Source of the DNA: an uncultured Spirochaetota bacterium
GTDB taxonomy: Bacteria; Spirochaetota; Spirochaetia; SZUA-6; Fen-1364
Assembly (NCBI GenBank): GCA_963733835.1
Contig: CAVTER010000004.1
Span: 43,102 to 107,101, forward strand
Length of the DNA: 64,000 nucleotides
Direction of reading: 5' to 3'
Below, piece by piece: positions 23,705 through 56,344 of this stretch. How positions within the stretch are numbered: the first letter of the stretch is position 1; each line of letters starts with the position of its first letter. Both the position numbers and the translations under genes were made by a program. The notes below the pieces were generated by a model. That model did no database searches, was not told the DNA's origin, and saw only the letters and a program-made list of their open reading frames with translations.

Positions 23705-23919
23705 TACCCGCCCCGCGTCAGCCGCAGGATCTGCTCGGTCGACATCGTCACGTCTCCCCGGCCGACCAGCCCGCGCAGGGGAGTGTCGGACCTGCGCAGC
23801 GCCCGCAGCACGATCCTCCCGTCCTCCTCGATGAACTCGACTTCGGCGTGCGCATCGATGCGGTACTTGCGCCGCAGGGCCTGGGGGATCGTGACCTGTC
23901 CCTTGATGGTGACTCGCAT
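23704..23919 (-). CDS. vapB: AbrB/SpoVT-type antitoxin VapB
   Basis: A 71-aa ORF (MRVTIKGQVTIPQALRRKYRID) with a swapped-hairpin AbrB/MazE-like N-terminus. Confidence 0.7.
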   Translation of the reverse strand: MRVTIKGQVTIPQALRRKYRIDAHAEVEFIEEDGRIVLRALRRSDTPLRGLVGRGDVTMSTEQILRLTRGG

Positions 23920-30741: not shown

Positions 30742-31442
30742 CTCCTCTCGTCGGAGGCCACGGCCCCGTCGTGCAGGCGCACGAGCCTGCGCGCGAAGCC
30801 CATCACCATCGGGTCGTGGGTGGAGAAGACGAATGTTGTGCGGTGCCTCGCGTTCATCGAGGCCATGAGCTCCAGGATGGCCCTGCCCGTGTCGGAGTCG
30901 AGGTTCGCCGTGGGCTCGTCGGCCAGCACGATGGACGGCTCCTTCACCAGGGCGCGCGCCACGGCCACGCGCTGCTGCTGGCCGCCGGACAGGCGCGCGG
31001 GCAGCCGGTCCTCCATGCCCCCGAGACCCACCTCGGCGAGGATGGCGGTTGTGCGCTCGCGCATGTCCCGCTCGCCCACGCCGAGAAGCGACAGGGCGAA
31101 GGAGACGTTCTCGAACGCGCTCAGCACGGGGATGAGGTTGAAGGTCTGGAAGACGAAGCCGAGGTGCCTGCGTCGGAACATCGCCAGCTCGTCGCGGCCC
31201 ATGGCGGAGACGTCCTGGCCGTCGATCTCGATGCGGCCCGTGTCGGCCCTGTCGATGCACCCGATGAGGTTCAGCAGCGTCGTCTTCCCCGAGCCGGACG
31301 GCCCGGCGATGCTCATGAACTCGCCCTTCTCGACAAGGAGCGAGACCCCCCGAAGCGCGCGCACGCCGGCCTCGCCGCCGCTGTAGGTCCTGCTCACGTC
31401 CTGCACGCTGATCAGCGCGCGCGACTTCCCGGTGTCGCTCAC
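30738..31442 (-). CDS. ABC transporter ATP-binding protein (LolD/MacB-NBD-like)
   Basis: A GTG start (VSDTGKSRALISVQDV), Walker A GPSGSGKTT, the signature LSGGQQQRVAVARAL, Walker B LADEPTANLD and the H-loop STHD. Confidence 0.85.
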   Translation of the reverse strand: MSDTGKSRALISVQDVSRTYSGGEAGVRALRGVSLLVEKGEFMSIAGPSGSGKTTLLNLIGCIDRADTGRIEIDGQDVSAMGRDELAMFRRRHLGFVFQTFNLIPVLSAFENVSFALSLLGVGERDMRERTTAILAEVGLGGMEDRLPARLSGGQQQRVAVARALVKEPSIVLADEPTANLDSDTGRAILELMASMNARHRTTFVFSTHDPMVMGFARRLVRLHDGAVASDERR

Positions 31443-32972: not shown

Positions 32973-33105
32973 GCAGGCTCCCTTCGGCTGACTATTGTAC
33001 CAATGTAATAATACAACAGGAGAATAGTACACTCGCCCGTGTGTGTCAAGCGGTATGACCGGATCCGCGATCGAAGTCGATCCCCGGATGGGCTATACTG
33101 TGGGA

Positions 33106-34068
33106 ATGAATCACAGGCTCCTCCCTGCCCTCGTCCTGGTGCTGGCCGCCGCCGGCCTCGCCGCCCAGCAGCAGGTGCGCGTCTCGACCGAGCGCCAGCT
33201 TCCTGCCGCGCTGCGCTCCAATACCACGGTGACACTGGCGGCCGGAAAGTACCTGACCAGCGAGGTGAGCCAGAGCTCGAACCCCGCCGTGAGCTGGGAG
33301 GAGAGCTTCGACGGCCGACAGCTCGTTGTCACGGGGGTGAGCGGGCTCACACTGAAGGCCGCGCAGGGGGCGGCACGGGGTGCCACGCTGCTCGCCGAGC
33401 CGCGCTACTCCTACACCATCGTGTTCCGCCGGTGCAGGGACCTGCGCCTGGAGGGGCTGACCCTCGGGCACACCGAGGCGGGTGAGTGCGAGGGAGGCGT
33501 GCTGCGGTTCGAGGGCTGCGCGAACGTGCAGATCCAGGACTGCGACATGTTCGGAAGCGGCGTGGTCGGACTGGACCTTGAGAAGTGCGCGGGTGTCACG
33601 GTGCTCGGCTCGACAATCCGCGACTGCAGCGCGGGGGCACTGTGGGCGGTGGGTGTGCAGGACCTGCGTCTCGAGAACGTGCGCATCGCCGGCAACGAGG
33701 GGTGGCCCCTGGTCTGGGTGGAAGAGTCGCGAAACCTCGTCTTCGATTCCTGCCTCATCGAGGAGAGCACGGGCGAGGGCCTCTTCTGGATCGACGGGAA
33801 ATCCCAGGGGGTTTCGCTTCCCCGCACGACGATCCGGAACAACCAGACGGAGAGTCTCCTGTCCGACGACAGCGCCGAGCCCGACTTTTCGAACACGGCC
33901 TTCCTCGAGAACGACTTCGAGCAGGAGGAGGCAGACGAGCTGGACTGCGACTGCGAGGACGGCTCCGACCAGGCCTACGAGGAGGGCTACGACGAGGGCT
34001 ACCAGGAGGGCTACGAGCTGGGGTACGAGGAAGGCTACACCGACGCCCTTTCCGAGGGAGGCGACTGA
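33106..34068 (+). CDS. Secreted right-handed parallel beta-helix repeat protein with an acidic C-terminal (E/D-G-Y) repeat tail
   Basis: A signal peptide (MNHRLLPALVLVLAAAGLAAQ) is followed by beta-helix-like repeats (LRFEGCANVQIQDC, VGLDLEKCAGVTVLGSTIRDC, LRLENVRIAGN). The tail reads DELDCDCEDGSDQAYEEGYDEGYQEGYELGYEEGYTDALSEGGD. Confidence 0.6.
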   Translation: MNHRLLPALVLVLAAAGLAAQQQVRVSTERQLPAALRSNTTVTLAAGKYLTSEVSQSSNPAVSWEESFDGRQLVVTGVSGLTLKAAQGAARGATLLAEPRYSYTIVFRRCRDLRLEGLTLGHTEAGECEGGVLRFEGCANVQIQDCDMFGSGVVGLDLEKCAGVTVLGSTIRDCSAGALWAVGVQDLRLENVRIAGNEGWPLVWVEESRNLVFDSCLIEESTGEGLFWIDGKSQGVSLPRTTIRNNQTESLLSDDSAEPDFSNTAFLENDFEQEEADELDCDCEDGSDQAYEEGYDEGYQEGYELGYEEGYTDALSEGGD

Positions 34069-34072
34069 GCGC

Positions 34073-35278
34073 TCAGGCCTTCTTCAGCATCTCCTCCAGC
34101 AGGAGGTGGCAGTACAGGAGCTGGCGCGGAATGTGGAACGGGCCCTTCCACATGTTGCCCTTCAGGTCGTGCGACACGGTGCCGTCCCTGTGCAGGTAGC
34201 CGAACCACTCGCCGTACTGCCTGGTCGGGGAACCTGTCCATCGACCACGACAGTATCTTCTCGAACCAGCGCTCCCACTTCGGGTCTCCGGTGAGGTCGT
34301 AGGCGAGCAGCGCCGCATAGATGGCCTCGTTGTGCGGCCAGAACAGCTTCATGTCCCACTCGTACTGCACGGGCTGCCTGCCCTCGATGTCGACGAAGTA
34401 GAGGATGCCGCCGTACTTCGGGTCCCACCCCAGGTCGAGCGACCACTCGAGGATGGGCAGCGCCTTGTCGACAAGGGCCCTGTCGTTCCTCTGCTTCCCC
34501 TCTGCCATGATGAACCACGCCGTCTCGATCGCGTGGCCCGGGTTCACGCACCGGCCCTCGGGAGAGTCGCCCAGGTACTCGCCGTTCGGCCCCACGGTTT
34601 CCAGGAGAGCCTTCTTCTCGGGCTTCACGAAGAGGCGGAAGACCTCGTCGATCTGCGTGTCGATCATCGCGTCGTAGGGGAGGGGCGAGGCGGTGGTGTC
34701 GGCCCGGCGCATCACCTGCAGCGTGTTGATCTGGATCATCGACATGGAGTGCCCGCGCATGGGCCTCGTCTCCTGGAAGACCTTCGGCTCGAGAGACCCG
34801 GGGCCGGCCATTTCTTCGCGGCGGTCTCCTGGACGAAGCGCATGAGCGACCTGGCCTTCTCGAGGGACCGTGCGTCGCCGGCAGCCCTGCCGTACTCGGC
34901 GAAGGCCATGATCGCGAAGATCTCGGCGAAGAGGTAGCGGCGCTTGCGCAGCGGCCTGCCGTCGCGCGTGACCGAGTAGAAGACCCTGCCGTCCGTGTCG
35001 AAGCCGTGCGCCAGGATGAAGTCGATCGCGTGCTTCGACAGGGCCAGCCACTCCTCGCGCTTTTCCAGGTCGTTGTACAGGCGCGCGAGGGTCCACCCGA
35101 TCCTTCCCTCGACCCACATCGGCTTGTCGGAGCAGAGGATCTCGCCCTTCCTGTCCAGGAACGTCGTGAATCCTCCGTGCTGCCGGTCGGTGGCATGGCT
35201 GATCCAGAACGGGATGACGTTGTCCACCAGCTCGCTGCGGAACATGTCGCTCAGCTGCTTCATGCGGCGCTTTGTCAT
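34073..35278 (-). CDS. N-acylglucosamine 2-epimerase (AGE) / cellobiose-2-epimerase-family protein, 2 frameshifts
   Basis: The fragments 34736..35299 (MTKRRMKQLSDMFRSELVDNVIPFWISHATDRQHGGF), a middle frame (...AIETAWFIMAEGKQRNDRALVDKA...ILYFVDIEGRQPVQYEWDMKLFWPHNEAIYA) and 34073..34318 (FGYLHRDGTVSHDLKGNMWKGPFHIPR) join into an AGE-family (alpha/alpha)6 barrel protein. Confidence 0.7.
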
Positions 35279-35410
35279 GGGACCCTCCCGAACAGGCATC
35301 GATCGTGGAACCAGGGACGTACGATCGTCGAATCGTACCGTACCCGATGCATCCTGTCAACGAAGCACGCGGAAAATGGGCCCATTCGGAGAAATCTTCA
35401 CAAAAGCCTT

Positions 35411-35439
35411 GACGCCGGTACCGGGCCATAGTAGAATCG
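35411..35439 (+). promoter_or_regulatory. Sigma70-like promoter of the sugar ABC operon
   Basis: TTGACG-17 nt-TAGAAT, with a 10-bp palindrome CCGGTACCGG inside the spacer. It lies 150 nt upstream of the SBP start. Confidence 0.45.
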
Positions 35440-35587
35440 GCCAAAAGTCAGCGCTCACCGCGCCATGGGAAGACAGCCGAGAGCGGAAGGAGGTGGTTTC
35501 GTGTTCGTCCGCCAGCCCCCTTGAAGTTCCCGCCCCTGCACCGTTTTCCTCCATATCCACGAAAAGAACATGAGAAGGAGTGAGTCA

Positions 35588-36853
35588 ATGAAGATGCGGA
35601 AGGTTCTGTGTGTTGCCCTGGTCCTCCTGCTTGCCGTGGCGAGCCTTGCGATGGCGCAGAAGTTCGCCGGCAAGAGCATCAGGGTGCTGTACTTCTCCGC
35701 GACCTACGCGGATGCGGCGAAGGAGTACGCGAAGGAGTTCCAGCAGAAGACCGGCGCAAAGGTCGAGGTCGTCGACTTCCCCTACGTGACGCTGTACGAG
35801 AAGATGGGCCTCGCCCTGTCGACGGGAGACGACTCCTACGACGTGGTCACCCCGGCCTGCCAGTGGGACGGGGAGTTCGAGCCGTTCATGGAGGACCTGG
35901 CGCCCCTCATCAAGAGGGACAAGTTCGACTCGGCGGACATCATCCCGAACCTGTGGGAGCAGTCGGGCAAGTGGAACGACAGGATCATGGGCATCCCGTT
36001 CTCCAACACGCCCCAGACCCTCGCCTACAGGACCGACCTGATAAAGAAGTTCCCCACCAACTGGGACGAGTTCTTCACCGTGTGCGCGAAGCTCAACAAC
36101 CCGGCCAAGGGCTTCTATGCCATCGCCATCCCCGGCGTGAAGGAGCAGCTGTCGGGCCTGTGGATGATGGTCCAGTGGTCGCTGGGCGGCAGGTGGGCAG
36201 ACGAGGACTGGAACCTGGCCATCGACTCGCTGGAGACGCGCAGGTCCCTCGAGGTCACCAAGAAGTGGTTCAGCTACGCCGACCCCGCGTCTCCCGCCTG
36301 GGGTCTCGGTGAATCCGACGCGGCGTTCCTCGCCGGCAACGCGGCCATCGCGTTCTCCTGGCCCACCCTGGGAATCGCCCCCAACGGCGACAACCCCGAG
36401 AAGTCGAAGGTCGTGGGCAAGTGGGCCATCGCGCCCATCCCCTATGCCAAGAACGGCGTGACGGTGCTCTCCTCGTGGGACATCGGCATCCCCAAGGCGG
36501 CGAAGAACAAGGACGTGGCCTGGGAGTGGATCAAGTTCTACACCAGCAAGGAGAAGCAGCTGTCGAACTTCACAAAGTACTCGATCCTGCCCTCGCGCAT
36601 CTCGGTGTGGCAGCTTCCCCAGGTGAAGAACAGCAAGCTGTACCCGCACTGGCAGGCCTCGCAGCAGGGCGCGGTGATCTGGTGGAGGATCCCCGCCGGC
36701 ACCATGGCCGAGACCTACGTGCGCGACGCTGTGTCCAACTACGTCACCGACCAGTGGGGCCTGAGCAAGGCAGTGTCGTTCATGGAGGACGGCCTGCAGA
36801 AGCTGCTCGAGGAGTACCCGCCCGCCCCGGGGGTCAAGAACACCGGCCGCTGA
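35588..36853 (+). CDS. ABC transporter extracellular solute-binding protein (family 1, sugar/oligosaccharide type) lipoprotein
   Basis: A signal peptide (MKMRKVLCVALVLLLAVASLAMAQ) and a family-1 SBP fold. A sigma70-like promoter (TTGACG-17-TAGAAT) and a GAAGGAG RBS lie upstream. Confidence 0.8.
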   Translation: MKMRKVLCVALVLLLAVASLAMAQKFAGKSIRVLYFSATYADAAKEYAKEFQQKTGAKVEVVDFPYVTLYEKMGLALSTGDDSYDVVTPACQWDGEFEPFMEDLAPLIKRDKFDSADIIPNLWEQSGKWNDRIMGIPFSNTPQTLAYRTDLIKKFPTNWDEFFTVCAKLNNPAKGFYAIAIPGVKEQLSGLWMMVQWSLGGRWADEDWNLAIDSLETRRSLEVTKKWFSYADPASPAWGLGESDAAFLAGNAAIAFSWPTLGIAPNGDNPEKSKVVGKWAIAPIPYAKNGVTVLSSWDIGIPKAAKNKDVAWEWIKFYTSKEKQLSNFTKYSILPSRISVWQLPQVKNSKLYPHWQASQQGAVIWWRIPAGTMAETYVRDAVSNYVTDQWGLSKAVSFMEDGLQKLLEEYPPAPGVKNTGR

Positions 36854-36926
36854 CCTGAGTGTCGTTCCGGAGGGCCCCCCGCGAACTTCCGTGGGGGCCC
36901 TCCTTCTTCCCGGGAGGATCCACGGC

Positions 36927-37829
36927 ATGCTCGTGACGAGAACACTCTACCAGAGCACCACCGACAGGCTGCTCTCCTGGCTTTTCGTGCTGCCCGTCAT
37001 CCTCATCCTGCTCGTGGCGGCGTTCATCCCGCTGGGGTGGGGCCTGTACTTGAGCTTCTTCCGCTACAAGCTCAACATGCCGTCTGTCACCGCCTTCATC
37101 GGGCTGAAGAACTACCTGAACATCTTCACCGACGAGCTGCTGATCCGCAGCCTGCGCAACAACGCCATCTTCGCGACGGTGTCCGTCCTCCTCGAGCTCG
37201 TCGTGGGGGTGGTCATCGCGATGATGCTCTCGAGCGACAGCCGCCTGTCGCGCGGAATGGTGAGCATCCTCATGGTGCCCATGATCATCGCCCCCGTGGC
37301 GGCAGGCACGCTGTGGCGCATGATGCTGGACCGCACCTACGGGGTGGTCAACTACCTGCTCTCGTTCGTGGGGATCAAGCCCCTCTCCTGGATCGGCGAT
37401 CCCAAGCTCGCCCTGTACACCGTGTCGCTGGTCGACGCGTGGCTGTACATCCCCTTCGTGGCGGTGCTCATGCTCTCCTCGATCAAGGCCATGCCGACCA
37501 GCTTCCTGGACGCGGCGCGCGTGGACGGCGCCTCGCCCTGGAAGGTGTTCTGGAAGATCATCCTGCCCATCACCTCGCCTGTCATCATCATCGTGGCCAT
37601 GCTGCGGTTCATCGACGCGTTCAAGGTGTTCGACACGATCTTCGTCATGACGCAGGGCGGCCCCGGCAACGCCACGGAGATGCTGCCCACCTACATCTAC
37701 CGCCAGGGCATCAAGTTCCTGAACATCGGCTACTCGTCGGCCACCGCCATCGTGTTCGTGGCGGCCATGTCGATCATCGCCTGGGTGTTCCAGAAGCTGC
37801 GCGACAGCCAGCTCGCGAGGCTGGGGTAG
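36927..37829 (+). CDS. Sugar ABC transporter permease (MalF/UgpA-like)
   Basis: Six TM helices and the EAA loop (AARVDGASPWKVFWKIILP). Confidence 0.8.
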   Translation: MLVTRTLYQSTTDRLLSWLFVLPVILILLVAAFIPLGWGLYLSFFRYKLNMPSVTAFIGLKNYLNIFTDELLIRSLRNNAIFATVSVLLELVVGVVIAMMLSSDSRLSRGMVSILMVPMIIAPVAAGTLWRMMLDRTYGVVNYLLSFVGIKPLSWIGDPKLALYTVSLVDAWLYIPFVAVLMLSSIKAMPTSFLDAARVDGASPWKVFWKIILPITSPVIIIVAMLRFIDAFKVFDTIFVMTQGGPGNATEMLPTYIYRQGIKFLNIGYSSATAIVFVAAMSIIAWVFQKLRDSQLARLG

Positions 37830-37833
37830 CGCC

Positions 37834-38712
37834 ATGCAGGAACGACGCGCGCGCTCGACACGCAGGACCCGCGACCAGCAGCTTGCGAACTTCCTGAGCC
37901 TTCCGGTGCGGATCGTGGTCCTGGTGGCGGTCATGGCCGCGATCCTCTTCCCGCTGTACTGGCTGGTCAGCAACTCGCTGAAGCAGGAGCAGGAGTACTA
38001 CCACAGCCCGCCCATCATGTTCCCCACGAAGGTCACGGGGGAGAATTACGTCGAGATCGTCGCGAAGCGGGGGCTGTTCGCGGGGCTGAAGAACTCGCTT
38101 CTCATCGCGGCCTTCACGACCCTCGCCACGGTGCTCTTCGGCAGCCTCGCCTCCTACTCGCTGGTGAACGGGATGCTGCCCCGCAGGGTGAAGAACGGTT
38201 TCGCATGGTGGTTCCTCATCCAGAAGATGTACCCCGCCATCGTCGTGGCGGTGCCCGTGTTCTACATAGTGCGAAGCCTCCGCCTGATGGACAGCGTGGC
38301 CTCGCTCGTGCTCATGAACACGAGCTTCAACCTGCCGCTGGTGATCCTGCTGATGGTGGGGTTCTTCCAGGAGGCTCCCTTCGAGGTGGAAGAGCAGAGC
38401 ATGCTGGACGGGGCAAACCTCGCGCAGCGCTTCTTCCACATCACCGCTCCCATGGTCAAGAGCGGCATGATCGCCACCGGTATGCTCACCTTCGTGGCGA
38501 GCTGGAACGAGTTCCTCTACGCCGTCATCCTCACCATCGTGAAGGCCAAGCCGCTGACGGTGCTCATCGCGGGGTTCATCACCGACAAGGCGCTGATCTG
38601 GGGTCCCATGGCCGCCATGGGCTGCGTGGTCATCGCGCCCGTCCTGGTGATCATGTGGCTGATGCAGCGCGATTTCATCAGCGGCGTGTCTGCCGGTGCG
38701 CTGAAGGGCTGA
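37834..38712 (+). CDS. Sugar ABC transporter permease (MalG/UgpE-like)
   Basis: Six TM helices and the EAA-like loop (EQSMLDGANLAQRFFHITAPM). Confidence 0.8.
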   Translation: MQERRARSTRRTRDQQLANFLSLPVRIVVLVAVMAAILFPLYWLVSNSLKQEQEYYHSPPIMFPTKVTGENYVEIVAKRGLFAGLKNSLLIAAFTTLATVLFGSLASYSLVNGMLPRRVKNGFAWWFLIQKMYPAIVVAVPVFYIVRSLRLMDSVASLVLMNTSFNLPLVILLMVGFFQEAPFEVEEQSMLDGANLAQRFFHITAPMVKSGMIATGMLTFVASWNEFLYAVILTIVKAKPLTVLIAGFITDKALIWGPMAAMGCVVIAPVLVIMWLMQRDFISGVSAGALKG

Positions 38713-38722
38713 GGACGGCGGC

Positions 38723-39922
38723 ATGGTCGACACGCGGCCCGGCATCCAGCGGGAGCGGATGAACGGGATCCTGCGCGCTCTCCTGGACGGCGGCAGGCTC
38801 ACGCGCGCGGGCCTCGCCGCGACGCTGCGGCTCAGCCCCTCCTCCATCGTGAAGTACGCGAAGGTGCTCATCGACAAGGGCCTCGTGCGCGAGGCGGACA
38901 GGGAGCTGTCCACGGGAGGCCGCAGGTCGACGCTCCTGGAGCTGAACGCCGAGGCGGGCCTGAGCGTCGCCGTCGTCTTCGAGGCGAGCGCCGTGCGGGG
39001 GGCCGTCGTGGACGCGGCCGGGCGCACCGTGTCGGAGGCGGCGGTGCCGGCAGGGCAGGGCATCGCGCGCGGGGAGCTGCTCGCGGCCATGGACAGCCTG
39101 CTGGAGGGGCTGCTCGCCGCCGCGCGCAAGGCGGTGCCCCGGGTGCTGGGCATCGGCATCGGCATCGGCGGGTACATGGACCCGGTCGATGGAGTCTCGC
39201 ACGAGTACCTGTACGCGAGTGACTGGTACGACGTGCCGCTGCGCAGGCTGGTGGAGGACCGCTGGGGCCTTCCCTGCTACCTCGTGAACGACGCCAACGC
39301 CTGCGCGCTGGGCGAGAAGCACCGCGGCATGGGCGTGGGGGTGCGCGACTTCCTGTGCGCCTGGATCGGCGAGGGCGTGGGCATGGGCATCGTTGCCAAC
39401 GGCGAGCTGTACACGGGCAGGAGCTGGTACGCCGGCGAGTTCGGGCACATGCACGCCGTGGACGGCGGACAGCTGTGCTACTGCGGCCACTCGGGGTGCC
39501 TGGAGACGGTCTGCTCGCAGGAGGCGATCCTGGCGGCGTGCCGCGAGGGCCTGCGCCAGGGGGTGGCGAGCGACATCCGCAAGCAGATCGCGGGGGACCC
39601 CGACTCGGTGGCCATCGCGCAGGTGGTCGACGCGGCGAACAACGGCGACAGGTTCGCGAGGAACGTCATGGTCCGGGCGGGCGACGCGCTGGGGGCGAGG
39701 CTGGCCGACGCGGCCAACCTCTTCAACCCCGAGATGATCATCCTGCGCGGCCCCGTGATCGACGCCAACGCGTTCCTCTTCGAGCGCATCAGCGGCGTGG
39801 TCACCCACGAGACGCTGCGTCCCACGGCACGGGCGCTGCGCCTGGCATACTCTCCCGAGCGCAGGGACATCCGGTTCGCGGGGGTCGCGAGCGCGATCCT
39901 CATGGACTACTTCGCGAGGTAG
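38723..39922 (+). CDS. ROK-family transcriptional regulator (NagC/XylR-like: N-terminal HTH plus sugar-kinase-like domain)
   Basis: An HTH (RAGLAATLRLSPSSIVKYAKVLIDKGLV), the ROK glycine motif GIGIGIGG and the zinc motif CYCGHSGCLE. Confidence 0.8.
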   Translation: MVDTRPGIQRERMNGILRALLDGGRLTRAGLAATLRLSPSSIVKYAKVLIDKGLVREADRELSTGGRRSTLLELNAEAGLSVAVVFEASAVRGAVVDAAGRTVSEAAVPAGQGIARGELLAAMDSLLEGLLAAARKAVPRVLGIGIGIGGYMDPVDGVSHEYLYASDWYDVPLRRLVEDRWGLPCYLVNDANACALGEKHRGMGVGVRDFLCAWIGEGVGMGIVANGELYTGRSWYAGEFGHMHAVDGGQLCYCGHSGCLETVCSQEAILAACREGLRQGVASDIRKQIAGDPDSVAIAQVVDAANNGDRFARNVMVRAGDALGARLADAANLFNPEMIILRGPVIDANAFLFERISGVVTHETLRPTARALRLAYSPERRDIRFAGVASAILMDYFAR

Positions 39923-39928
39923 GACGAG

Positions 39929-41029
39929 GTGACATCGAGAGAGAGAGTGGCGGCCGCCTTCGCGCACCGCGACCCCGACAGGACGCCCCTGTTCGAGTAC
40001 GTGCTCCTGCCGCCCGTGGCCGGGCAGGTGCTGGGACGACCGTTCATCGAGTACCTGGGCGGCATGGAGCCGTGGCTGGCGGCTGCCGCCGAGCAGGGCT
40101 TCGAGCGGCTCCTCGGCTCCTACGCGCGCGACAGGGTGGAGATCGCCCGGCGGCTGGGCCACGACATGATCTGCCTGAGCCCCAACCCCGTGCCCGGGGC
40201 CGCCTACTCCTACGACCCCCTGTCCGAGATCGGGGCGCAGTTCACCGTCGCGGCCGAGGGTGACCCCGTGCAGCGGCTGGTGGAGCGCAACCGCAGGGTG
40301 GCCGAGACCATGCTGGGCGAGCTGCCCCGGGACAGCTACCTCGTGTACGACCTCGTGCGCGAGGAGATGAGGCGGCACGGCATGGACCTGCCCATCCTCG
40401 CACCCGCGTACTACCACGGCATCTGGACCGACGCCGACCTGATGCAGGTCATGGTCCTGGAGCCCGAGGTGGCGCGCGAGCACTTCCGCCTGGCCACGCG
40501 CAGGGCCCTTGCCGCGATCGACGACTACACCCGCCTGGGAATCGACTGCATCGGGATCGGCGGCGACTTTGCCGGGGTGCGCCTGCTCATCTCCCCCGAG
40601 TCCTACCGCCGGTTCATCGTCCCGGAGGTGGCAGCGTGCGCCCGTCGGGTGCGCGCCGGAGGGGCCCGGTCGGTGAACGCCTCGGACGGGAACCTGTGGC
40701 CGGTGCTGGACGATTTCCTGGATGGGTGCGAGGTGGACGCGTACCTCGAGATCGACATGAGCGCGGGCATGGACCTGGCCCGGCTGAAGGCGGCCTGGGG
40801 CGGGCGCATCACCTTCTTCGGCAACATGGACTGCGGGAAGATCCTGAGCTTCTCGACCCCCGAGGAGATCCGCGCCGTGACACTGTCCATCCTCGATGCG
40901 GGGTGGGGCGGGGGCGGGCACATCTTCACGGCGAGCAACGCCATCACGGCGAGCGTGCCGCTGGCCAACTACCTCGCCATGGTGAACGCATACAGGGAAA
41001 GGTTCGCCCTCGGGCCGCTGAGCCTCTGA
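39929..41029 (+). CDS. Uroporphyrinogen-decarboxylase (URO-D)-family protein (methyltransferase MtaA/CmuA-like)
   Basis: A 366-aa intact ORF with a URO-D-like TIM barrel (RTPLFEYVL...DCIGIGGDFAG...FFGNMDC). Confidence 0.6.
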   Translation: MTSRERVAAAFAHRDPDRTPLFEYVLLPPVAGQVLGRPFIEYLGGMEPWLAAAAEQGFERLLGSYARDRVEIARRLGHDMICLSPNPVPGAAYSYDPLSEIGAQFTVAAEGDPVQRLVERNRRVAETMLGELPRDSYLVYDLVREEMRRHGMDLPILAPAYYHGIWTDADLMQVMVLEPEVAREHFRLATRRALAAIDDYTRLGIDCIGIGGDFAGVRLLISPESYRRFIVPEVAACARRVRAGGARSVNASDGNLWPVLDDFLDGCEVDAYLEIDMSAGMDLARLKAAWGGRITFFGNMDCGKILSFSTPEEIRAVTLSILDAGWGGGGHIFTASNAITASVPLANYLAMVNAYRERFALGPLSL

Positions 41030-41044
41030 GCCTTCCGAGCCGCA

Positions 41045-41072
41045 TGGTGGGCGTTTCCGCGGAAACGCCCAC
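41045..41072. terminator. Perfect 13-bp stem / 2-nt loop GC-rich hairpin between convergent genes (bidirectional terminator candidate)
   Basis: GGTGGGCGTTTCC-GC-GGAAACGCCCACC sits in the 60-bp gap between the two convergent URO-D-family genes. No U-tract follows. Confidence 0.5.
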
Positions 41073-41089
41073 CACGGCGACCCGGTCGA

Positions 41090-42145
41090 TCAACGGCTGC
41101 CGTGCGGCTGGCTGCCCGCCGCGGCATGTTCCTCGCAGGCCCTCACCATTGCCCGCAGGTTCTCCAGGGGCGTCATGCGCGGCACGCCGCAGCCCGGCGA
41201 GAGAATCACGCCCCGCTCCATGCCCGGCTCCTCGAGGATGCGCCGGCAGGCTGCCGTGACCTGGTCCGGGCGCGCCTGCAGCAGGAACGTGGTGTCGAGG
41301 TTGCCCTTGAGCGCGATCCTCCCGCCCAGCAGCTGCCGTGCCAGCGCCATGGGCACCTTCGAGTCCACCTCGAAGCCCTGGAAGGGCACGCCGGCCAGGA
41401 AGTGCAGGAGGTGGTCGGTCCTGCCGCAGATGTGGATCCACAGGTCGCAGTCCCTGCCCGCGAGCGCGTCGATCGCCTTCTCCTGCCAGGGAAGGACGAA
41501 CTTCCGGTAGTCCGCGGGCGAGACGAGGCTGGCTGTCGCGTCGCCGAACTGGATGGCGTGTACGCCCGTGGCGATCATCGCTTTTCCATACGCGACGACG
41601 ACCTCGGTGCAGAAGGAGAGAAGCTCGCGCAGGTCCGCCTCGTTCTCCGTCGAGAGGTCCATGAAGAAGTCCTGCGCTCCCCGCAGCACGGCGGCGAGGC
41701 TGAAGGGGCCCGTGTCGATGTTGGCCTGGATGTAGTACCTGTCCCCGGCGGCCGCCACGACCCTGCGGGCTGCATCGAGGAGGGTTGTCATGCCGGGGGC
41801 GCTCGCGGGGTCGGGCACGCGGAGCTTGCGGAAGTCCCTCACCGAGTCAAGCAGCACCGTCCTGCTGAACGACTCGTCGTCGTCGGGGAAGGTGAGCTCC
41901 CCGCCCAGCGCCTGGTGGTAGACCCAGTTGTCGCGCGAGACGTAGATGCCGTCGAAGCCGCACATCTGGCGGGCTTTCAGCAGCGTGTCGGCCATGACCG
42001 CGGAGTCGGTCATGTACCTCCCCTGCGGCACCCCCGTGAGCTGGCAGGCAGGAGCCAGCAGGATCGGGAAGGTGGGGACCCTGTCGACAGGCTCGCCGCG
42101 CACCGCCGCGCGCGTCCGCTGCAGCCCCGTCATCTCACTGGACAT
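41090..42145 (-). CDS. Uroporphyrinogen-decarboxylase (URO-D)-family protein, second paralog
   Basis: MSSEMTGLQRTRAAVRGEPVDRVPTFPILL...ICGRTDHLL...ILSPGCGVP is a URO-D/MtaA-like fold. Confidence 0.6.
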   Translation of the reverse strand: MSSEMTGLQRTRAAVRGEPVDRVPTFPILLAPACQLTGVPQGRYMTDSAVMADTLLKARQMCGFDGIYVSRDNWVYHQALGGELTFPDDDESFSRTVLLDSVRDFRKLRVPDPASAPGMTTLLDAARRVVAAAGDRYYIQANIDTGPFSLAAVLRGAQDFFMDLSTENEADLRELLSFCTEVVVAYGKAMIATGVHAIQFGDATASLVSPADYRKFVLPWQEKAIDALAGRDCDLWIHICGRTDHLLHFLAGVPFQGFEVDSKVPMALARQLLGGRIALKGNLDTTFLLQARPDQVTAACRRILEEPGMERGVILSPGCGVPRMTPLENLRAMVRACEEHAAAGSQPHGSR

Positions 42146-42554
42146 CGAACCCCTCCTTCCGCGCGGCCTCCGCCAGCCGCTCATCGGAGGTGAGCAACGC
42201 AAGCGTCGCCGGGTTCTCCGACGAGGCTGCGAGAGCAGCAGCGAGCTGCAAGGCGTCCGCGGCCCTCAGCGGGTGCACCCGCAGCAGCCGCATCGCCCTC
42301 GCCCTGAGCTGGCTGGTCGGCAGCACCTCGTGCCAGCTCTCCGCGAGCGACTCGAGCGCGGAGAGAGCGTGAGAAAGCTGCTGGTCATCCAGGCCGCCCT
42401 CCCGGCGAAGACGATTGAGGGCCGACGCGCATTCCAGCCGGCACGCCCACCAGACCGTCATCTGCGGGTCGGAGAGCAGCAGTGACTTCCGGCCCTCGGT
42501 CTGCTGCTCGGGGACGAGCAGGGGGATGACCGCCGAGGAGTCCCAGAACCTCAT
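42135..42554 (-). CDS. vapC: PIN-domain toxin (VapC-like)
   Basis: MRFWDSSAVIPLLVPEQ... has PIN acidic residues. It overlaps the upstream antitoxin gene. Confidence 0.7.
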   Translation of the reverse strand: MRFWDSSAVIPLLVPEQQTEGRKSLLLSDPQMTVWWACRLECASALNRLRREGGLDDQQLSHALSALESLAESWHEVLPTSQLRARAMRLLRVHPLRAADALQLAAALAASSENPATLALLTSDERLAEAARKEGFDVQ

Positions 42555-42850
42555 CGGCCGGCCTCGCGTTCCTCGAGAAGGGCCCGCAGGGCGCTTGCCC
42601 CTTCCGGGAGCTTCGGCATGCGCCGGTTCACGAAGGCCCGGGCATCGAGAGGCTTGCGCGGCGGGGCGAGCACACCGCGCCTGACCAGGTCAGCCACCAG
42701 CTCACTGCCCATGCCGGGATCGCTGTTGACCGGTTCCAGCCTCGCGACGGGCGTGTCCCTGTCGAGGATCAGCACGGTCTCGCCCCGCTTGACCTCTTCT
42801 ATCAATCGACTGAGCGTGTTCTTCGCAACAGATATTGTAGCTTTCTTCAT
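42551..42850 (-). CDS. Phd/YefM-type antitoxin
   Basis: MKKATISVAKNTLSRLIEEVKRGETVLILDRDTPVARLEP is the Phd/YefM fold. A TATAGCTATA palindrome lies in its promoter region. Confidence 0.7.
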   Translation of the reverse strand: MKKATISVAKNTLSRLIEEVKRGETVLILDRDTPVARLEPVNSDPGMGSELVADLVRRGVLAPPRKPLDARAFVNRRMPKLPEGASALRALLEEREAGR

Positions 42851-42922
42851 ATGGCTATTATAGCTATATCTGGGAGCGTCGTCAATTCCGTGGCTGTCGG
42901 GCGGGAGTCTTCTCCGGCCCTC

Positions 42923-44160
42923 TCATCCCAGCCACCTCTGCATCCACTCGAAGGCCTCCGCCTGCATGGGCAGGTCGAACTTGTGCGGGCCCGGGTAAAG
43001 GGAGATGCGGAACGCGTCGGGTGCGCCCGCCTTTGCGTAGGTCTCGGCCAGGATCTCGTCCTGCCCGCTCGATCTCCCCGCGGGTGTACAGCGGGTCTTC
43101 CGTGGTGGACAGCACCAGGCTGGGAAGCGGGGCGCGCACGGCCAGCATCTCGGGGAAGTCCATCTGCCCCGGGATGCCGGGCGGGTAGATCATCCACGTG
43201 TGCGTGTAGCTCACGTTCCTGCAGAAGTCACGCCACGTGGTCATGAAGCCGACCACCACGGTGCAGCGCACCCTGTCGTCTGCCCCGGCCAGGAAGACGC
43301 TCCTCATGCCGCCCCCGGAAAGGCCGCCGCAGCCCAGCCGGCGAGCCGTCCACGTCGGGACGGGAGGCGAGGTACGAGAGAGCCGCGGAGTCTTCTGCGA
43401 GCGTGACACCCGGCCACGTCGTGCCCGCGCAGAGCAGCGACTTGGCAACGATGGTCTCGTGCTGGCCGGCAAAGGCGTTGTACCTCGCGATGGCAGCCTC
43501 CGGCTCGTCTGTGGGGACCTCGTAGCGCAGGACGGGATCAGTCGAGGCGAGGTCCGCGGGCAGCATCTCGCGCTGGGCTTCGGGGGCTGCCATGAGCTTC
43601 TCCACCGCGAAGGGAGGGAGGCCCGAGGCGAGCACCTTCCTGCTCTCGAAGGGGAACACGTCGTGGACGAGCACCGCGAACCCGCGCCGGGCGATCTCGT
43701 TGGCCCACGCCCTTCCGCCGTAGTACTCGGCCTGGTGGCGGCTCATCATGGCGTGCTGCGGGGAGGCAGTGCGGGAGATCTTCCGCTTGCCGAAGAACTT
43801 GTTCGCTGCGTGGTCGTGCAGCGCGAGCACGCCGGGGAGCTTTCCCGTCGCCCCCGCGGGCTTCAGGAACACGGCCTGGGTGCGCGGTCCCCAGGGCAGC
43901 TGCCACGAGAGCTCCTCGACCGCGAGTCCTTCGTGCAGGTACGCCGCGTGCACCTGCACCTCGGCGGCACCGACCGGGCTCCCGTCCGGCTGGACGGGAC
44001 AGCGGAAGCAGCGGGCAAGCTCCTCCCGCGCTGCCTTCTTCCACGCCCCGAGGTCCGTCCAGCGCGGGTTTCGGAACGACAGGCTGCCCGGCCCCTCGGC
44101 AGCCCGGGCCGCTGCCCACTCCCCGTAGGCGCCCAGCATGGTGAGCGGTGACTGTGCCAT
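42923..44160 (-). CDS. Alpha/beta hydrolase (acetyl-xylan-esterase / dienelactone-hydrolase-like), 2 frameshifts
   Basis: The N-terminal part is in ORF 43228..44160 (LALHDHAANKFFGKRKI...), the middle part in 42882..43472 (SGGGMRSVFLAGADDRVRCTVVVGF, a nucleophile region), and the C-terminus (QDEILAETYAKAGAPDAFRISLYPGPHKFDLPMQAEAFEWMQRWLG) in a third frame. Confidence 0.6.
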
Positions 44161-50762: not shown

Positions 50763-52245
50763 GTGTTCGACGTCGCTGTCATCGGCGCCGGGGTGAGCGG
50801 CGCGGCGATCGCGCGGCTGCTTGCCGCGCACGCCGTGACCGTGGCCCTGGTGGAGAGGGCAGCCGACGTCTCCTTCGGCGTCTCCAAGGCCAACTCCGGC
50901 ATCATCCACGCCGCCTTCCACCACAAGGGCACGACCCTCAAGGCGCGCCTGGAGGCCGCGGGAAACCCGATGTTCGACCGCCTGCAGGCGGAGCTGGGAT
51001 TCCCGTTTCGCAGGGTGGGCATCGTCGTGGCAGCCTTCTCCGAGGAGGAGATGAAGACCGTCGAGGTCCTGCACGAGCGGGGAGTGGAGAACGGCTCGCC
51101 GGGCATCGAGATCGTGGGCCGCGACAGGCTGCTCGCCCTCGAGCCGAAGCTCAGCCCTGACGTGCGCGGGGGGCTTTTCGCGCCCAGCGGCGGGATCATC
51201 GAGCCGTACAGGTTCGTCTTCAGCCTGGTGGAGAACGCCGTGGCCAACGGCGTGCAGCTGTTCAGGAACTGGAAGGCCTCCTCGGCGCACCAGGTGGACG
51301 GGGGCTGGCAGATCGAGTCCGACCGGGACGAGAGGATCCTCGCCCGCTGGGTGGTGAACGCCGCGGGCCTGCGCGCGGACGAGGTCTCGGCCGCCTTCGG
51401 CGCCGAGCGCTACACGATCACCCCGAGGAAGGGCGAGGAGTACATCCTCGAGAGGGGCAGCGCGGGGTTCCCCTCGCGCGTGATCTTCCCCGTCCCCACG
51501 AAGAACTCCAAGGGAATGCTCGTGATCCCCACGGTGGAAGGCACGATGATGCTCGGCCCCACCGCCGAGGAGATCGAGGACAAGTCCGACGTGGCCACCA
51601 CGCCCGACAATCTCGAGCGCGTGTTCGACCTTGCCGCCCGCATGGTGCCGGCAGTGTCGCGGCGCGACATCATCACCTCCTTCGCCGGCCTTCGGCCCAC
51701 GCTGCCGGGCGACGACTTCTATGTCGAACGCTCCCGCGAGGCGCCGCGCTTCGTGCAGGTGGCAGGCATCCAGTCGCCCGGGCCTCACGGCCTCGCCCGC
51801 CATCGCCGAGCGCGTGCTGGACCTGCTGCGGGAAGATGGCCTCGCGCTTCGGCCGCGGGCGGACTTCGACCCCTTCGTGCGACACCCCGCGCGCATCCGC
51901 GAGGTGCCGCCGGGGGACCGGGAGGCACTCGCCCGCCTGGTGGCCGAGGACCCTTCGCGCGGTCACGTGGTCTGCAGGTGCGAGACGGTGAGCGAGGCCG
52001 AGGTGGTCGAGGCGATCAGGAAGGGCCACACGACGCTGGACGGGATCAAGTTCTACACGCGCGCGGGCCAGGGCAGGTGCCAGGGCGGGTTCTGCACCTA
52101 CCGGATCATGCAGATCCTGGCGCGCGAGACGGGCATGCCCCTGGAGGCAATCACCAAGAGGGGCGGGGAGAGCGTGCTCGTGGTGGGGCGCATCGGCGCC
52201 GGCCGGCCGCCGACCCGTCTGCCGGTCCCGGGAGGCCCGCGTGAG
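50763..52245 (+). CDS. GlpA-like FAD-dependent oxidoreductase with a C-terminal BFD-like [2Fe-2S] domain; one or more frameshifts near 51790
   Basis: MFDVAVIGAGVSGAAIARLLA (GxGxxG), DAO-family motifs, then after a shift CRCETVSEAEVVEAIRKGHTTLDGIKFYTRAGQGRCQGGFC, a BFD-like 2Fe-2S domain. Confidence 0.7.
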
Positions 52246-55907: not shown

Positions 55908-56344
55908 GCCTACATCCTTTCCCCGTAGATGCTCTCGGGTCTCCAGAGTGCTCGCAGGTCCCACCCGCCTCGACCGCGTTGGGGAGCTGCTCCCACGGGC
56001 GCGCTCGTAGTCGGCACGGGCACCGTACCGACCCCGCCTTGACGGGGAACCCGCCCAGCGTGCCGTTCTGGGCGATGGACCACCACGCGAGGCGGGAGGG
56101 CTTGTCCGCGAGGCGGACCATGCACACGGCGTGTCCGTTCCCGCCTGCTTCGCGACCGAAGCTCCCGACCCACGGGTCCCAGCCCCAGTAGCGGAGCAGG
56201 CCGCAGGTGAACAGCGCCCAGTCCTCGCAGGACGCCCGCCTGCCCGCTGGCCAGGCAACTGCTGCGTCGGGCCAGCCGACCGCAATGGCCGTGGGCCCGC
56301 TGTCGGACTGAAGTCCACTCCAGCCGAAGACACCGGATCGCGGT

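Follow-up and report, generated by a model that had tools for sequence, protein, structure and literature searches.

Importers of the CUT1 carbohydrate class can be energized by shared ATPases, such as MsiK in Streptomyces and MsmX in Bacillus. The NanL-NanE-RokA route is an example of an AGE-type ManNAc/GlcNAc epimerase route. This sialic-acid route of Bacteroides is named in the abstract of 10.64898/2026.05.18.725967. In the acetogen Odm, Vdm, Mtv and Cdm systems, an MT I of the UroD superfamily works with a corrinoid protein, an MT II and an activating enzyme, and MT I enzymes of this superfamily can function without zinc (PMC13222342). The type 1 mlp clusters contain three MtaA-like paralogs together with a corrinoid protein and Ram/RACE, and the genes for a corrinoid methyltransferase, its carrier and its activase normally lie together (Kountz & Balskus, PMC10418091).

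Here we describe a locus in a window of 64,000 nt (the whole stretch of DNA analysed) from an uncultured Spirochaetota bacterium, in which a sugar importer lies next to an AGE-family epimerase gene and two genes of the URO-D family, called UROb and UROc. The cluster is a conserved catabolic module of anaerobic uncultured spirochaetes.

Layout and conservation of the locus

Pfam matches across the 64,000-nt window confirmed, at the coordinates given, each gene that a sequence-only reading of this DNA had described, with a divergent AGE gene (minus), an importer operon (plus) and a second URO-D gene convergent to the first (minus). The features are as follows.

34073–35278, minus strand: AGE-family gene, N-acyl-D-glucosamine 2-epimerase type (Pfam GlcNAc_2-epim, split over two frames)
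35279–35569, no strand: control region between the divergent AGE and SBP genes, holding two promoter-like sites
35360–35332, minus strand: promoter-like site toward the AGE gene (promoter scan)
35409–35437, plus strand: promoter-like site toward the SBP gene (promoter scan)
35570–36853, plus strand: family-1 carbohydrate solute-binding protein, SBP (Pfam SBP_bac_1, 3e-37)
36891–37829, plus strand: ABC permease 1, MalF/UgpA type (Pfam BPD_transp_1; NCBIfam UgpA/GlcT-like)
37834–38712, plus strand: ABC permease 2, MalG/UgpE type (Pfam BPD_transp_1; NCBIfam GlcU/UgpE-like)
38723–39922, plus strand: ROK-family transcription regulator (Pfam ROK, 7e-50, plus MarR_2/HTH_24)
39929–41029, plus strand: UROb, URO-D-fold enzyme, last gene of the importer operon (Pfam URO-D, 9e-16, C-terminal half only)
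41046–41073, no strand: hairpin between the convergent UROb and UROc stop codons (perfect 13-bp stem, GC-rich)
41090–42145, minus strand: UROc, MtaA/CmuA-like URO-D-fold protein (Pfam URO-D, 2e-62, full length)
42135–42554, minus strand: PIN toxin (Pfam)
42551–42850, minus strand: Phd/YefM antitoxin (Pfam)
42885–42857, minus strand: near-consensus promoter of the Phd/PIN pair (11 of 12 matches)

The SBP, both permeases, the ROK regulator and UROb form one operon (35570–41029, plus strand) with intergenic gaps of 37, 4, 10 and 6 nt; the AGE gene and UROc form two further transcription units. The locus is therefore split, as the sequence-only reading had considered, but the three units are not unrelated to one another. 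The promoter scan gave four sites where shuffled sequence would yield 0.7, and three of these sites are intergenic. The hairpin folds at −35.7 kcal/mol (z = −4.0), a value equalled by none of 200 shuffles, and although it has no T-tract, it is a probable bidirectional terminator. All genes of the locus other than AGE have intact frames and a GC3 of 0.92–0.97.

The SBP carries a signal peptide but lacks a lipobox cysteine. Identity to its spirochaete orthologs is 68–87%, falling to 60% for the divergent L035. Its best solved relatives, the sugar binders 5iai and 6dtq, match at only 4e-26, too distant to indicate a ligand. No sugar-type (MalK-type) ABC ATPase is encoded within the 64-kb window, where the sole nucleotide-binding-domain matches (30753–31409, 8943–9573 and 1305–1754) belong to other ABC systems. 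The importer is of the CUT1 type and its ATPase is presumably supplied in trans, in line with the earlier suggestion that it borrows a shared one. The ROK protein, a winged helix followed by a ROK domain, appears NagC/Mlc-like from its scores (NCBIfam NagC, 198.6 bits; Mlc, 172 bits; both under the cutoff). Inspected by eye, it keeps the CYCGHSGCLE zinc motif and has a degenerate kinase DxGxT motif; the latter, together with the DNA-binding domain, indicates a regulator rather than a RokA kinase.

The AGE gene is full length, yet its frame is broken twice, by the loss of one C from a C-run at about 34800–34803 and by one base too many at about 34218–34221, so that the GC3 frame plot runs from frame 0 to 2 and back to 0. 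With tblastn, residues 1–393 of the CP070696 ortholog align to the region in three pieces at 61–73% identity, and the out-of-frame middle segment is the best conserved. Once its frame is reconstructed, the protein matches PDB 8bry at 1e-111, and the positions that align with the four catalytic residues of 2gz6 are conserved. Judged by these alignments, it is a close relative of true GlcNAc/ManNAc 2-epimerases, which points to an N-acyl-hexosamine as the substrate.

Among species representatives, a further 18 Spirochaetota loci carry the same gene set, arranged in three different orders, and it is also present on one more metagenome contig. UROc is convergent and follows UROb in one order, shares the divergent arm with AGE in another (L005, L015, L021 and L035), and is co-directional in the third (L019 and a JGI contig); no spirochaete locus on a sufficiently long contig lacks it. 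Because the gene set holds together across three gene orders, the link is functional and not due to chance, and the importer forms one group with the AGE and URO-D genes as had been proposed. The proposed pairing of both URO-D genes with the importer is thus borne out in that they are kept together, but in this genome UROc is not inside the importer transcription unit. It has its own, behind an inserted Phd/PIN toxin-antitoxin pair that lies directly upstream, the PIN stop overlapping the UROc start by 11 nt. This pair shares the UROc transcription unit here but is outside the conserved module, since none of the related loci has it, not even L006, the closest relative. Two genes found in relatives, a third URO-D paralog (UROa) and a second AGE (AGEb), are absent from this locus; L016 and L044 likewise have no UROa. 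Outside Spirochaetota, UROb and AGE are adjacent in L026, L028, L063 and L081, a UROb-AGE-URO-D trio is also found in a Ruminiclostridium MAG, and in L026 such a trio is located behind ABC permeases.

Two non-equivalent URO-D-fold proteins

The two URO-D genes at the locus are not equivalent. The end coordinate of the sequence-only reading, 42145, coincides with the start of a 100%-identical database protein of 351 aa (P0121). UROc matches MtaA (PDB 4ay7) over its full length at 6e-30, compared with 6e-17 for HemE in the PDB, and it scores 179.8 bits (8e-53; cutoff 235.4) with the NCBIfam mtaA_cmuA model and 74.7 bits (6e-21; cutoff 303) with hemE. Its HICG and PGCG motifs align with LHICGN and APGCG of MtaA, and the resulting His-x-Cys...Cys triad is invariant in the aligned sequences (17 of 17 UROc and 8 of 8 UROa). 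In global alignment UROc is ~25% and UROa ~19% identical to MtaA. The nearest characterised relatives of UROc are all methyl-corrinoid enzymes. UROc thus sides with MtaA/CmuA over HemE and looks like a zinc methyltransferase.

UROb did not bear out the same assignment and is not MtaA-like at the catalytic positions. It always has Ala, Asp and Asn where MtaA has His, Cys and Cys, scores 42.1 bits with the MtaA/CmuA model (cutoff 235.4), does not match the HemE model, and lies at the same structural distance from MtaA as from HemE. There is no significant sequence match between UROb and CdmB (9rui), and UROc matches 9rui at only 4e-5. We are confident that UROb folds as a UroD-superfamily barrel. 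Its invariant polar and aromatic residues are located at the C-terminal ends of the β-strands, with Asp, Glu, Asn, His and aromatics at the pocket positions. The family is compact, 47–85% identical across >12 phyla, and outside Spirochaetota it is mostly stand-alone with varied neighbours. By sequence comparison, UROb is a separate orphan orthogroup. Neither paralog groups with HemE, and the sequence-only reading is therefore not refuted on that count; overall, it holds in part.

Possible chemistry of the sugar pathway

We have high confidence that both URO-D-fold proteins work as enzymes in the sugar pathway of the cluster. In our preferred scheme, the importer would bring in an N-acyl-hexosamine-type sugar bearing a modification, most likely O-methylation, and UroD-superfamily methyltransferases would strip the alkyl group in the cytoplasm. 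UROb would act as a substrate-specific zinc-free MT I, for which CdmB and MtvB are known precedents, and UROc as a zinc-dependent, MtaA-like MT II that hands the methyl group on; the corrinoid carrier would be encoded at another place in the genome. The released N-acyl-mannosamine or N-acyl-glucosamine would then be epimerised by AGE and enter the ordinary GlcNAc route. The methylated substrate is one that we infer. Sugar demethylation is plausible; our confidence that it is corrinoid-dependent is low, and the complete scheme is tentative, with somewhat more doubt than trust on our part. It is favoured by the conserved linkage, the MtaA-like UROc, the barrel fold of UROb with its invariant strand-end residues, the zinc-free MT I precedent, the L063 locus described below and the AGE gene. 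Oxygen-dependent demethylation is not open to this organism, which is anaerobic and has a HydABC-type [FeFe] hydrogenase.

On the other hand, a corrinoid protein, which the sequence-only reading had suggested looking for, did not appear in the window. Its scanned ORFs contain no corrinoid protein, RACE activase, pterin-binding MT II or B12 riboswitch, nor do the spirochaete loci contain a corrinoid protein, activase or B12 riboswitch; corrinoid partners are also missing from 25 further metagenome loci and, except for L063, from 1.27 Mb of related loci. In L063, a Caldilineae contig, a corrinoid protein (B12-binding_2 plus B12-binding) is encoded co-directionally in the operon, two genes past UROb-AGE. 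This single adjacency in ~100 UROb loci is close to chance expectation. The lack of nearby partners, which are normally co-located, counts against the demethylation scheme, as do the scores of both proteins below the MtaA/CmuA cutoff, the mostly stand-alone UROb outside Spirochaetota, and the frameshifted AGE and absent UROa in this genome.

The URO-D-fold proteins may instead act on the imported sugar by corrinoid-independent chemistry, with no methyl-corrinoid, UROb being a novel TIM-barrel enzyme that converts sugars (isomerase, lyase, decarboxylase or hydrolase-like) and UROc a MetE-style zinc enzyme acting directly on a thiol or thioether. We give this the same weight as the demethylation scheme, again with somewhat more doubt than trust. 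The near absence of corrinoid protein and activase speaks for it, and so do the stand-alone, very conserved UROb in many saccharolytic phyla, the class II aldolase and PFK-family kinase that flank a distant UROb relative, the transaldolase/FSA-family gene and racemase that adjoin UROb in L026, and a UROb pocket composed as in sugar-binding barrels. However, it runs against the methyl-corrinoid relatives of UROc and leaves the L063 corrinoid protein unexplained. We know of no sugar-acting member of the URO-D family (PF01208-type), and full-text literature searches on URO-D-family genes in sugar loci or on sugar demethylation found none, which also counts against this reading.

It is unlikely that the locus is decaying and non-functional here, with AGE a pseudogene, UROa and AGEb lost and UROc captured by the toxin-antitoxin pair. 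The two frameshifts, the missing genes and the insertion would fit, but AGE is open apart from two indels that cancel (one base removed, one added), its middle segment remains at 73% identity with the catalytic residues kept, UROa-less layouts recur, and the remaining genes are intact. Other window genes have similar frame breaks, such as the one at 9401–9430 within the nucleotide-binding domain of an ABC exporter, and this pattern points to assembly indel errors; the AGE frameshifts are probably such errors. It is likewise unlikely that UROc is a general one-carbon/methionine-related methyltransferase outside the sugar pathway, leaving only UROb and AGE with the importer. Its separate opposite-strand unit, behind the Phd/PIN pair and past the strong hairpin, would agree with this, as would its position in CP070696.1 and the relative L009, downstream of MTHFR and DUF5981 and near FolD and a pterin-binding protein. 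Yet the MTHFR adjacency holds in only 2 of 18 loci, whereas UROc tracks the cluster through its rearrangements and is in every sufficiently long spirochaete locus. It is extremely improbable that both genes simply encode HemE paralogs serving tetrapyrrole synthesis. Both match PF01208 and source databases call many homologs uroporphyrinogen decarboxylase, but we rejected this identity on the model scores given above, on the NLGHG histidine position of HemE, where UROc has Cys and UROb has Asn, and on the sugar rather than heme operon context.

Comparison with known systems

The URO-D-fold proteins differ from HemE in not retaining its catalytic-site residues, in missing the model cutoff widely and in a context other than tetrapyrrole synthesis. 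Like the MsiK- and MsmX-dependent CUT1 importers, the importer has an SBP and two permeases with no ATPase gene at the locus; unlike in those systems, the shared ATPase was not found in the 64 kb of genome covered. In the NanL-NanE-RokA route, too, a sugar utilisation locus brings together a ROK-family protein and an N-acyl-hexosamine 2-epimerase of the AGE family; here, however, there is no sialate lyase, the ROK protein is a regulator instead of the RokA kinase, and the URO-D-fold genes have no counterpart in that route.

The acetogen O-demethylase and dehalogenase systems likewise use several paralogous UroD-superfamily barrels as substrate-specific methyltransferases, some of them zinc-free as UROb would be. 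Their substrates are aryl methyl ethers or chloromethane, and their genes come with those for a corrinoid protein, MT II and activase, which are missing from the carbohydrate context here. With the type 1 mlp clusters, the locus shares multiple deeply diverged MtaA-like paralogs, an anaerobic host, the lack of a tetrahydrofolate methyltransferase and an unknown substrate. Those clusters always include a corrinoid protein and activase, neither of which is found in ours, and are tied to methyl-sulfur/methyl-selenium metabolism, in contrast to the importer, ROK regulator and AGE here. The MtaABC-type methanogen systems differ in that our locus has neither an MtaC-type corrinoid protein nor an MtaB-type partner or an activase nearby, and, to our knowledge, coenzyme M is not expected in a fermentative bacterial host. 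UROc also falls under the curated family cutoff and sits beside a sugar importer. Nevertheless, UROc and UROa share both the full-length fold and the LHICGN/APGCG triad with the MtaA/MtbA/MtsA methylcobamide:coenzyme M methyltransferases (4ay7).

Organization and transcription of the importer locus

Because the window has a G+C content of about 70%, reading frames were chosen by third-position GC and then checked against Pfam. The locus proved to be laid out as the sequence-only reading had described it, with every gene recovered at its place by these frames and by Pfam.

Features of the locus (window coordinates, strand, description, source)
34073-35278, minus: AGE (GlcNAc_2-epim) epimerase gene; Pfam
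35360-35332, minus: promoter-like site toward AGE; consensus scan
35409-35437, plus: promoter-like site toward the binding protein gene; consensus scan
35570-36853, plus: SBP_bac_1 binding protein (SBP); Pfam
36891-37829, plus: BPD_transp_1 permease 1; Pfam
37834-38712, plus: BPD_transp_1 permease 2; Pfam
38723-39922, plus: HTH and ROK protein; Pfam
39929-41029, plus: UROb, URO-D protein; Pfam
41046-41073, between UROb and UROc: perfect 13-bp GC hairpin; fold -35.7 kcal/mol, z = -4.0
41090-42145, minus: UROc, full-length URO-D protein, convergent; Pfam
42135-42554, minus: PIN toxin gene; Pfam
42551-42850, minus: Phd/YefM antitoxin gene, preceding the PIN gene; Pfam
42885-42857, minus: near-perfect promoter-like site before the antitoxin gene; consensus scan

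The intergenic gaps in the plus-strand run from SBP to UROb are 37, 4, 10 and 6 nt, indicating that SBP, both permeases, the ROK protein and UROb form one operon. The 60-nt spacer between UROb and the convergent UROc contains the hairpin, and the starts of both genes are confirmed by database proteins with 100% identity, 366 aa long for UROb and 351 aa for UROc. Promoter-like consensus sites are enriched (4 observed versus 0.7 expected), and three of the four lie exactly within intergenic DNA. We also observed that the stretch with the AGE, SBP and permease genes (34000-38000) has a G+C content of 63-64%, as against 68-72% in the flanks, and that the first-codon-position GC is unusually low there (0.53-0.57). 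Immediately beside AGE, 33043-34068 (plus strand) encodes a secreted right-handed beta-helix protein with an unusual acidic C-terminal tail of EEGY/DEGY repeats that matches Pfam Yae1_N; it is not conserved in the related spirochaete loci, but a large beta-helix/CBM96 protein is encoded in the UROb operon of a Ruminiclostridium MAG (L026).

The family-1 binding protein and two MalF/MalG-type permeases (Pfam, NCBIfam) make this a CUT1 importer, and neither the window nor the cluster loci yielded a MalK/MsiK-type ATPase. A tblastn search with E. coli MalK matched only the nucleotide-binding domains of unrelated ABC systems (30753-31409, 8943-9573 and 1305-1754); the earlier statement that the locus has no ATPase is therefore true of the window, and the importer ATPase is presumably encoded elsewhere in the genome. 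The ROK protein has an N-terminal winged helix, a ROK domain and, in translation, a zinc motif of the CxCGxxGCxE type (CYCGHSGCLE), and its top NCBIfam models are NagC and Mlc, both under cutoff. Palindrome and k-mer enrichment in the AGE/SBP intergenic and UROc upstream regions of 12-13 loci revealed no shared ROK operator, yielding only promoter-like words of the TTGACA/TATAAT type, none of them in common with the GC-rich window, so that this search lends no support to co-regulation of UROc.

Directly upstream of UROc, the Phd/PIN pair and its near-consensus promoter occupy 42135-42885 (minus strand), and the UROc start overlaps the PIN stop codon by 11 nt. Neither the locus of the closest relative (L006) nor any other locus compared has this pair, which is therefore an insertion here. 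In this genome, transcription of UROc most likely starts at the promoter of the toxin-antitoxin pair. A second PIN-domain gene (23291-23704, minus strand) adjoins a small upstream ORF (23704-23919), and this pair (23291-23919) is probably another VapBC-type toxin-antitoxin.

The AGE gene does not have an intact reading frame, as its third-position GC signal changes frame twice. Using tblastn with the AGE ortholog of the Spirochaetaceae MAG CP070696.1, we recovered residues 1-393 in three collinear pieces (61, 73 and 70% identity), with a C missing from a C-run at about 34800-34803 and one surplus base at about 34218-34221; the two frameshifts compensate each other, and the best-conserved segment is the out-of-frame one. 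Same-strand frame switches without a stop codon at the junction also occur in several other places, among them about 9401-9430, 1230-1336, 20520-20565, 51795-52830, 55936-55950 and 43350-43590. In the case that we checked, an ABC exporter (7828-10695), the nucleotide-binding ABC_tran domain is divided between frames at 9401-9430, and a Pyr_redox_2 gene has its C-terminal half alone in frame. These switches suggest either frequent assembly indel errors or many recent pseudogenes. Since similar breaks affect other genes in the window and the out-of-frame segment is well conserved, the AGE frameshifts are read as probable assembly errors, the alternative being that AGE is a very recent pseudogene.

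The repaired AGE is far closer to solved N-acyl-glucosamine 2-epimerases (PDB 8bry, 1e-111; 6f04, 8e-88; 2gz6, 3e-86) than to cellobiose 2-epimerases (1e-28 or weaker). It has identical residues at all four positions aligned to R57, H239, E308 and H372 of the Anabaena enzyme (2gz6), which we take to be its catalytic Arg, His, Glu and His, and it scores below the NCBI equivalog cutoff of NF052547 (363.7 bits versus 600). No source paper for 8bry was found in the full-text literature. A YihS-type sulfoquinovose isomerase was also considered for AGE and rejected, as no such structure is among the PDB matches, which are GlcNAc and cellobiose 2-epimerases.

Two dissimilar URO-D-fold proteins

UROc matches the Pfam URO-D model at 2e-62 over profile positions 4-346 and the MtaA structure 4ay7 at 6e-30 in a full-length match (residues 22-359), compared with 6e-17 for the best HemE. 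The NCBIfam models give the same order (MtaA/CmuA, 179.8 bits versus HemE, 74.7), both scores being under the curated cutoffs (235.4 for TIGR01463 and 302.95 for the HemE model TIGR01464). The HICG and PGCG motifs of UROc align with LHICGN and APGCG of 4ay7, whose His, Cys and Cys are presumably the zinc ligands of MtaA, and this triad is invariant in a joint alignment of 17 UROc sequences and 8 sequences of UROa, a third paralog present in some relatives. At the position of the histidine in the HemE NLGHG motif, UROc has a Cys. By its sequence, UROc falls on the MtaA side of the superfamily.

UROb showed a distinct pattern. Only its C-terminal half matches the Pfam URO-D model, it scores 42.1 bits against the MtaA/CmuA model (cutoff 235.4), and the HemE model TIGR01464 gives no match at E <= 1e-3. 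The triad positions are Ala/Asp/Asn in 15 of 15 sequences sampled across phyla, and the NLGHG histidine is replaced by Asn337. UROb no longer carries the catalytic signature of either known branch of the superfamily. Within the family 75 alignment columns are invariant; many of these, located where the barrel strands have their C-terminal ends, are Asp, Glu, Asn, His or aromatic residues, which marks a real active site. Its UroD-superfamily barrel is that of the substrate:corrinoid methyltransferases (MT I), a class in which zinc is optional, and no PDB sequence match to CdmB (9rui) was obtained. Because CdmB and the Moorella enzyme are UroD-superfamily MT I proteins that work without zinc (PMC13222342), loss of the triad alone leaves UROb a possible MT I. 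Identity is only about 18-26% among the three paralog families and 19-25% between them and MtaA. The sequence-only reading had asked whether the two genes cluster with MtaA/MtvA-type methyltransferases and not with HemE; neither is HemE, UROc lies on the MtaA side, and UROb is a lineage of its own.

An exhaustive UROb profile search over 1.84 billion representatives returned 5590 matches at E <= 1e-3 and 124 at E <= 1e-30, and of the full-length 50%-identity representatives only two or three exceed 300 bits, so that UROb is a compact orthogroup within a large superfamily. Spirochaete MAGs supply the great majority of the homologs at 58-87% identity, and all UROb relatives that we looked up are unnamed metagenome proteins. 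The family, 49-62% identical to the window protein and 47-85% among its members, also occurs in Planctomycetota, Armatimonadota, Clostridia, Chloroflexota, Hydrogenedentota, Latescibacterota, Verrucomicrobiota, Lentisphaerota, Sumerlaeota and others, where all source genomes in a scan by GTDB species are MAGs. Automatic "uroporphyrinogen decarboxylase" labels on proteins of the UROb and UROc types are wrong as statements of function and should be read with caution in annotation.

Conservation of the gene set and search for corrinoid proteins

We scanned one genome per GTDB species, obtaining 80 loci; these, with two loci from look-ups (CP070696.1 and JAJSAL010000044) and with duplicates removed, contain 18 Spirochaetota loci that carry the module. 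In CP070696.1, three blocks follow one another, the first with AGE and a URO-D gene, the second with SBP, permease, permease, ROK, UROb and AGE, and the third with UROc; a 103-kb JGI contig has SBP, both permeases, ROK, two URO-D genes, AGE and another URO-D gene, all co-directional; and in JAJSAL010000044 the divergent arm holds URO-D, AGE and URO-D. UROc is present, in one of three positions, in every one of the 18 loci whose contig is long enough, while UROa and a second AGE are optional members, both missing in the window and in two other loci (L016 and L044). The importer, AGE and URO-D genes are a unit, and the recurrence of the module in Spirochaetota rules out chance adjacency.

Beside UROc in CP070696.1, a folate one-carbon/hydrogenase block (13531-20850) encodes MTHFR, DUF5981 (a MetV-like small subunit), a NiFe hydrogenase with HycI protease, a pterin-binding protein and FolD, and L009 is the only other locus with this block next to the cluster. 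Linkage to MTHFR and folate genes was considered as a general feature of UROc and dropped, because the MTHFR, FolD and pterin-binding neighbors seen in CP070696.1 recur in one close relative only.

Outside Spirochaetota, UROb has varied neighbors. In a set of 212 ORFs lying nearest or second-nearest to it, the Pfam families met most often are other URO-D paralogs (9), GFO/IDH/MocA oxidoreductases (5), GlcNAc_2-epim (4) and aldo-keto reductases (4), with scattered glycoside hydrolases and sugar transporters as rarer neighbors. In the Ruminiclostridium MAG, ABC permeases, the beta-helix/CBM96 protein, a TAL/FSA-family protein, UROb, AGE, URO-D and a racemase run in one direction. Several other contexts were recorded. 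In three independent assemblies of Brocadiia-type contigs (L002-L004), UROb at 61% identity directly follows ETF-beta, ETF-alpha and an FAD-linked oxidase resembling lactate/glycolate dehydrogenase, a context that has nothing to do with sugar import. A distant relative of 369 aa in a JGI contig (L086, Ga0172369_10000152, 6903-10097, plus strand) is flanked by a class II fructose/tagatose-bisphosphate aldolase-family gene and a PFK-family kinase, which hints at a sugar-phosphate role for that branch of the superfamily. In a Latescibacterota MAG (L085, JADZBP010000118.1, 5272-21039), at least five URO-D-family paralogs, UROb included, surround a glycyl-radical enzyme with its radical-SAM activase, together with a PLP-dependent decarboxylase and an NAD-epimerase, and this locus contains no corrinoid protein.

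Corrinoid methyltransferases are normally encoded with a carrier protein and an activase (PMC10418091; PMC13222342). Neither a corrinoid protein nor an activase was found among about 50 window ORFs scanned, and none accompanies UROc in the 18 spirochaete loci. Rfam detected no riboswitch of any kind, B12 included, in the window or in eight related loci. Scanning 1.27 Mb of loci for the DxHxxG...SxL...GG motif gave one true match, in the Caldilineae MAG DUEF01000314.1 (L063, 2526-8043, plus strand), where a CN-hydrolase/GDPD fusion, UROb, AGE, Metallophos and a corrinoid protein of 211 aa (B12-binding_2 and B12-binding) are co-directional. This is the sole corrinoid protein beside any UROb gene in about 100 loci; a phmmer search with it found no further one in any locus, and it was found in 0 of 25 metagenome loci related to the L063 UROb, the contig of the closest relative being too short. 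We treat the L063 adjacency, at 1 in about 100 loci, as a lead, not evidence. The gene tables and Pfam lists read for UROb loci contained no activase and no pterin-binding MT II, the partner that passes the methyl group on, with the sole exception of a pterin-binding gene about 6 kb away in CP070696.1.

Candidate chemistry and comparison with known systems

It is quite probable that the imported sugar is processed by a pathway in which the URO-D-fold proteins serve as enzymes, and that it belongs to the N-acyl-hexosamine class, to which the type of AGE and the NagC/Mlc-like regulator point. What these enzymes do is much less certain. We tentatively propose a dealkylation, most likely an O-demethylation, in which substrate specificity would lie with UROb, while UROc would serve as the MtaA-like zinc component; the corrinoid carrier would come from elsewhere in trans, and the product, once converted by AGE, would enter the GlcNAc route. 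Polysaccharides of plants, algae and bacteria commonly contain O-methylated sugars. To our knowledge, the sole described demethylation route for them is the P450 system for 6-O-methyl-galactose, which needs oxygen. In addition, the window encodes a NuoE-like 2Fe-2S protein, a NuoF-like flavoprotein and an [FeFe] hydrogenase large subunit (15117-19256, plus strand), a HydABC-type cluster of the electron-bifurcating type, which indicates that the organism is a strictly fermentative anaerobe; such a host fits the need for an oxygen-independent route. The interpretation given by the sequence-only reading is partly supported: the linkage of the importer, AGE and URO-D genes and the MtaA-side placement of UROc speak for it, and the lack of the MtaA triad in UROb and of a corrinoid protein in the window ORFs scanned and the spirochaete loci speaks against it.

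To this demethylation we give the same tentative weight as to a corrinoid-independent chemistry, in which UROb would represent a novel type of barrel that converts sugars, and UROc would work as a zinc enzyme in the style of MetE. The scarcity of corrinoid genes near UROb suits the latter, and the MtaA-like zinc triad of UROc and the precedent of zinc-free MT I proteins suit O-demethylation. The remaining alternatives are minor. That UROc is unrelated to the sugar pathway would agree with its place on the opposite strand behind the toxin-antitoxin pair, and stands against its constant presence in the spirochaete loci with long enough contigs; a decaying locus would account for the broken AGE frame, and the conserved out-of-frame segment speaks against it. 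The two URO-D genes might also be HemE paralogs, given their Pfam URO-D matches, and here the HemE model scores and the missing NLGHG histidine led us to reject a HemE function for both. Thiol-sugar substrates (bacillithiol or mycothiol fragments) as partners of the zinc site were dropped, as there was no evidence for them at all.

A more far-reaching form of the O-demethylation proposal, which we consider unlikely, would make the cluster the first known case of anaerobic, cobamide-dependent demethylation of O-methylated sugars, with UROb as the founder of a new zinc-free, sugar-specific MT I branch spanning more than 12 bacterial phyla, UROc as its MtaA-like partner and a shared carrier acting in trans from outside the operon. 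Whatever its chemistry, UROb is a good target for enzyme discovery, as a highly conserved orphan that is 47-85% identical across phyla and present in many uncultured sugar-degrading lineages. The spirochaete cluster offers a testable context, since it has a zinc-type partner, a dedicated binding protein open to ligand screening and an AGE by which the class of sugar is narrowed down.

Full-text searches found no relevant paper on URO-D-family genes in sugar loci or on anaerobic sugar demethylation, nor one on the P450 route for O-methyl sugars. The parts of the cluster come from known families (CUT1 importer, ROK, AGE and the UroD superfamily), and none of the papers reached by these searches describes their combination. 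Among known systems, the mlp clusters, with three paralogs, likewise have several UroD-superfamily proteins in one cluster, and the acetogen O-demethylase and Cdm systems also use several such proteins. All three, however, are defined by co-location with a corrinoid protein and an activase, whereas the cluster described here is without them.
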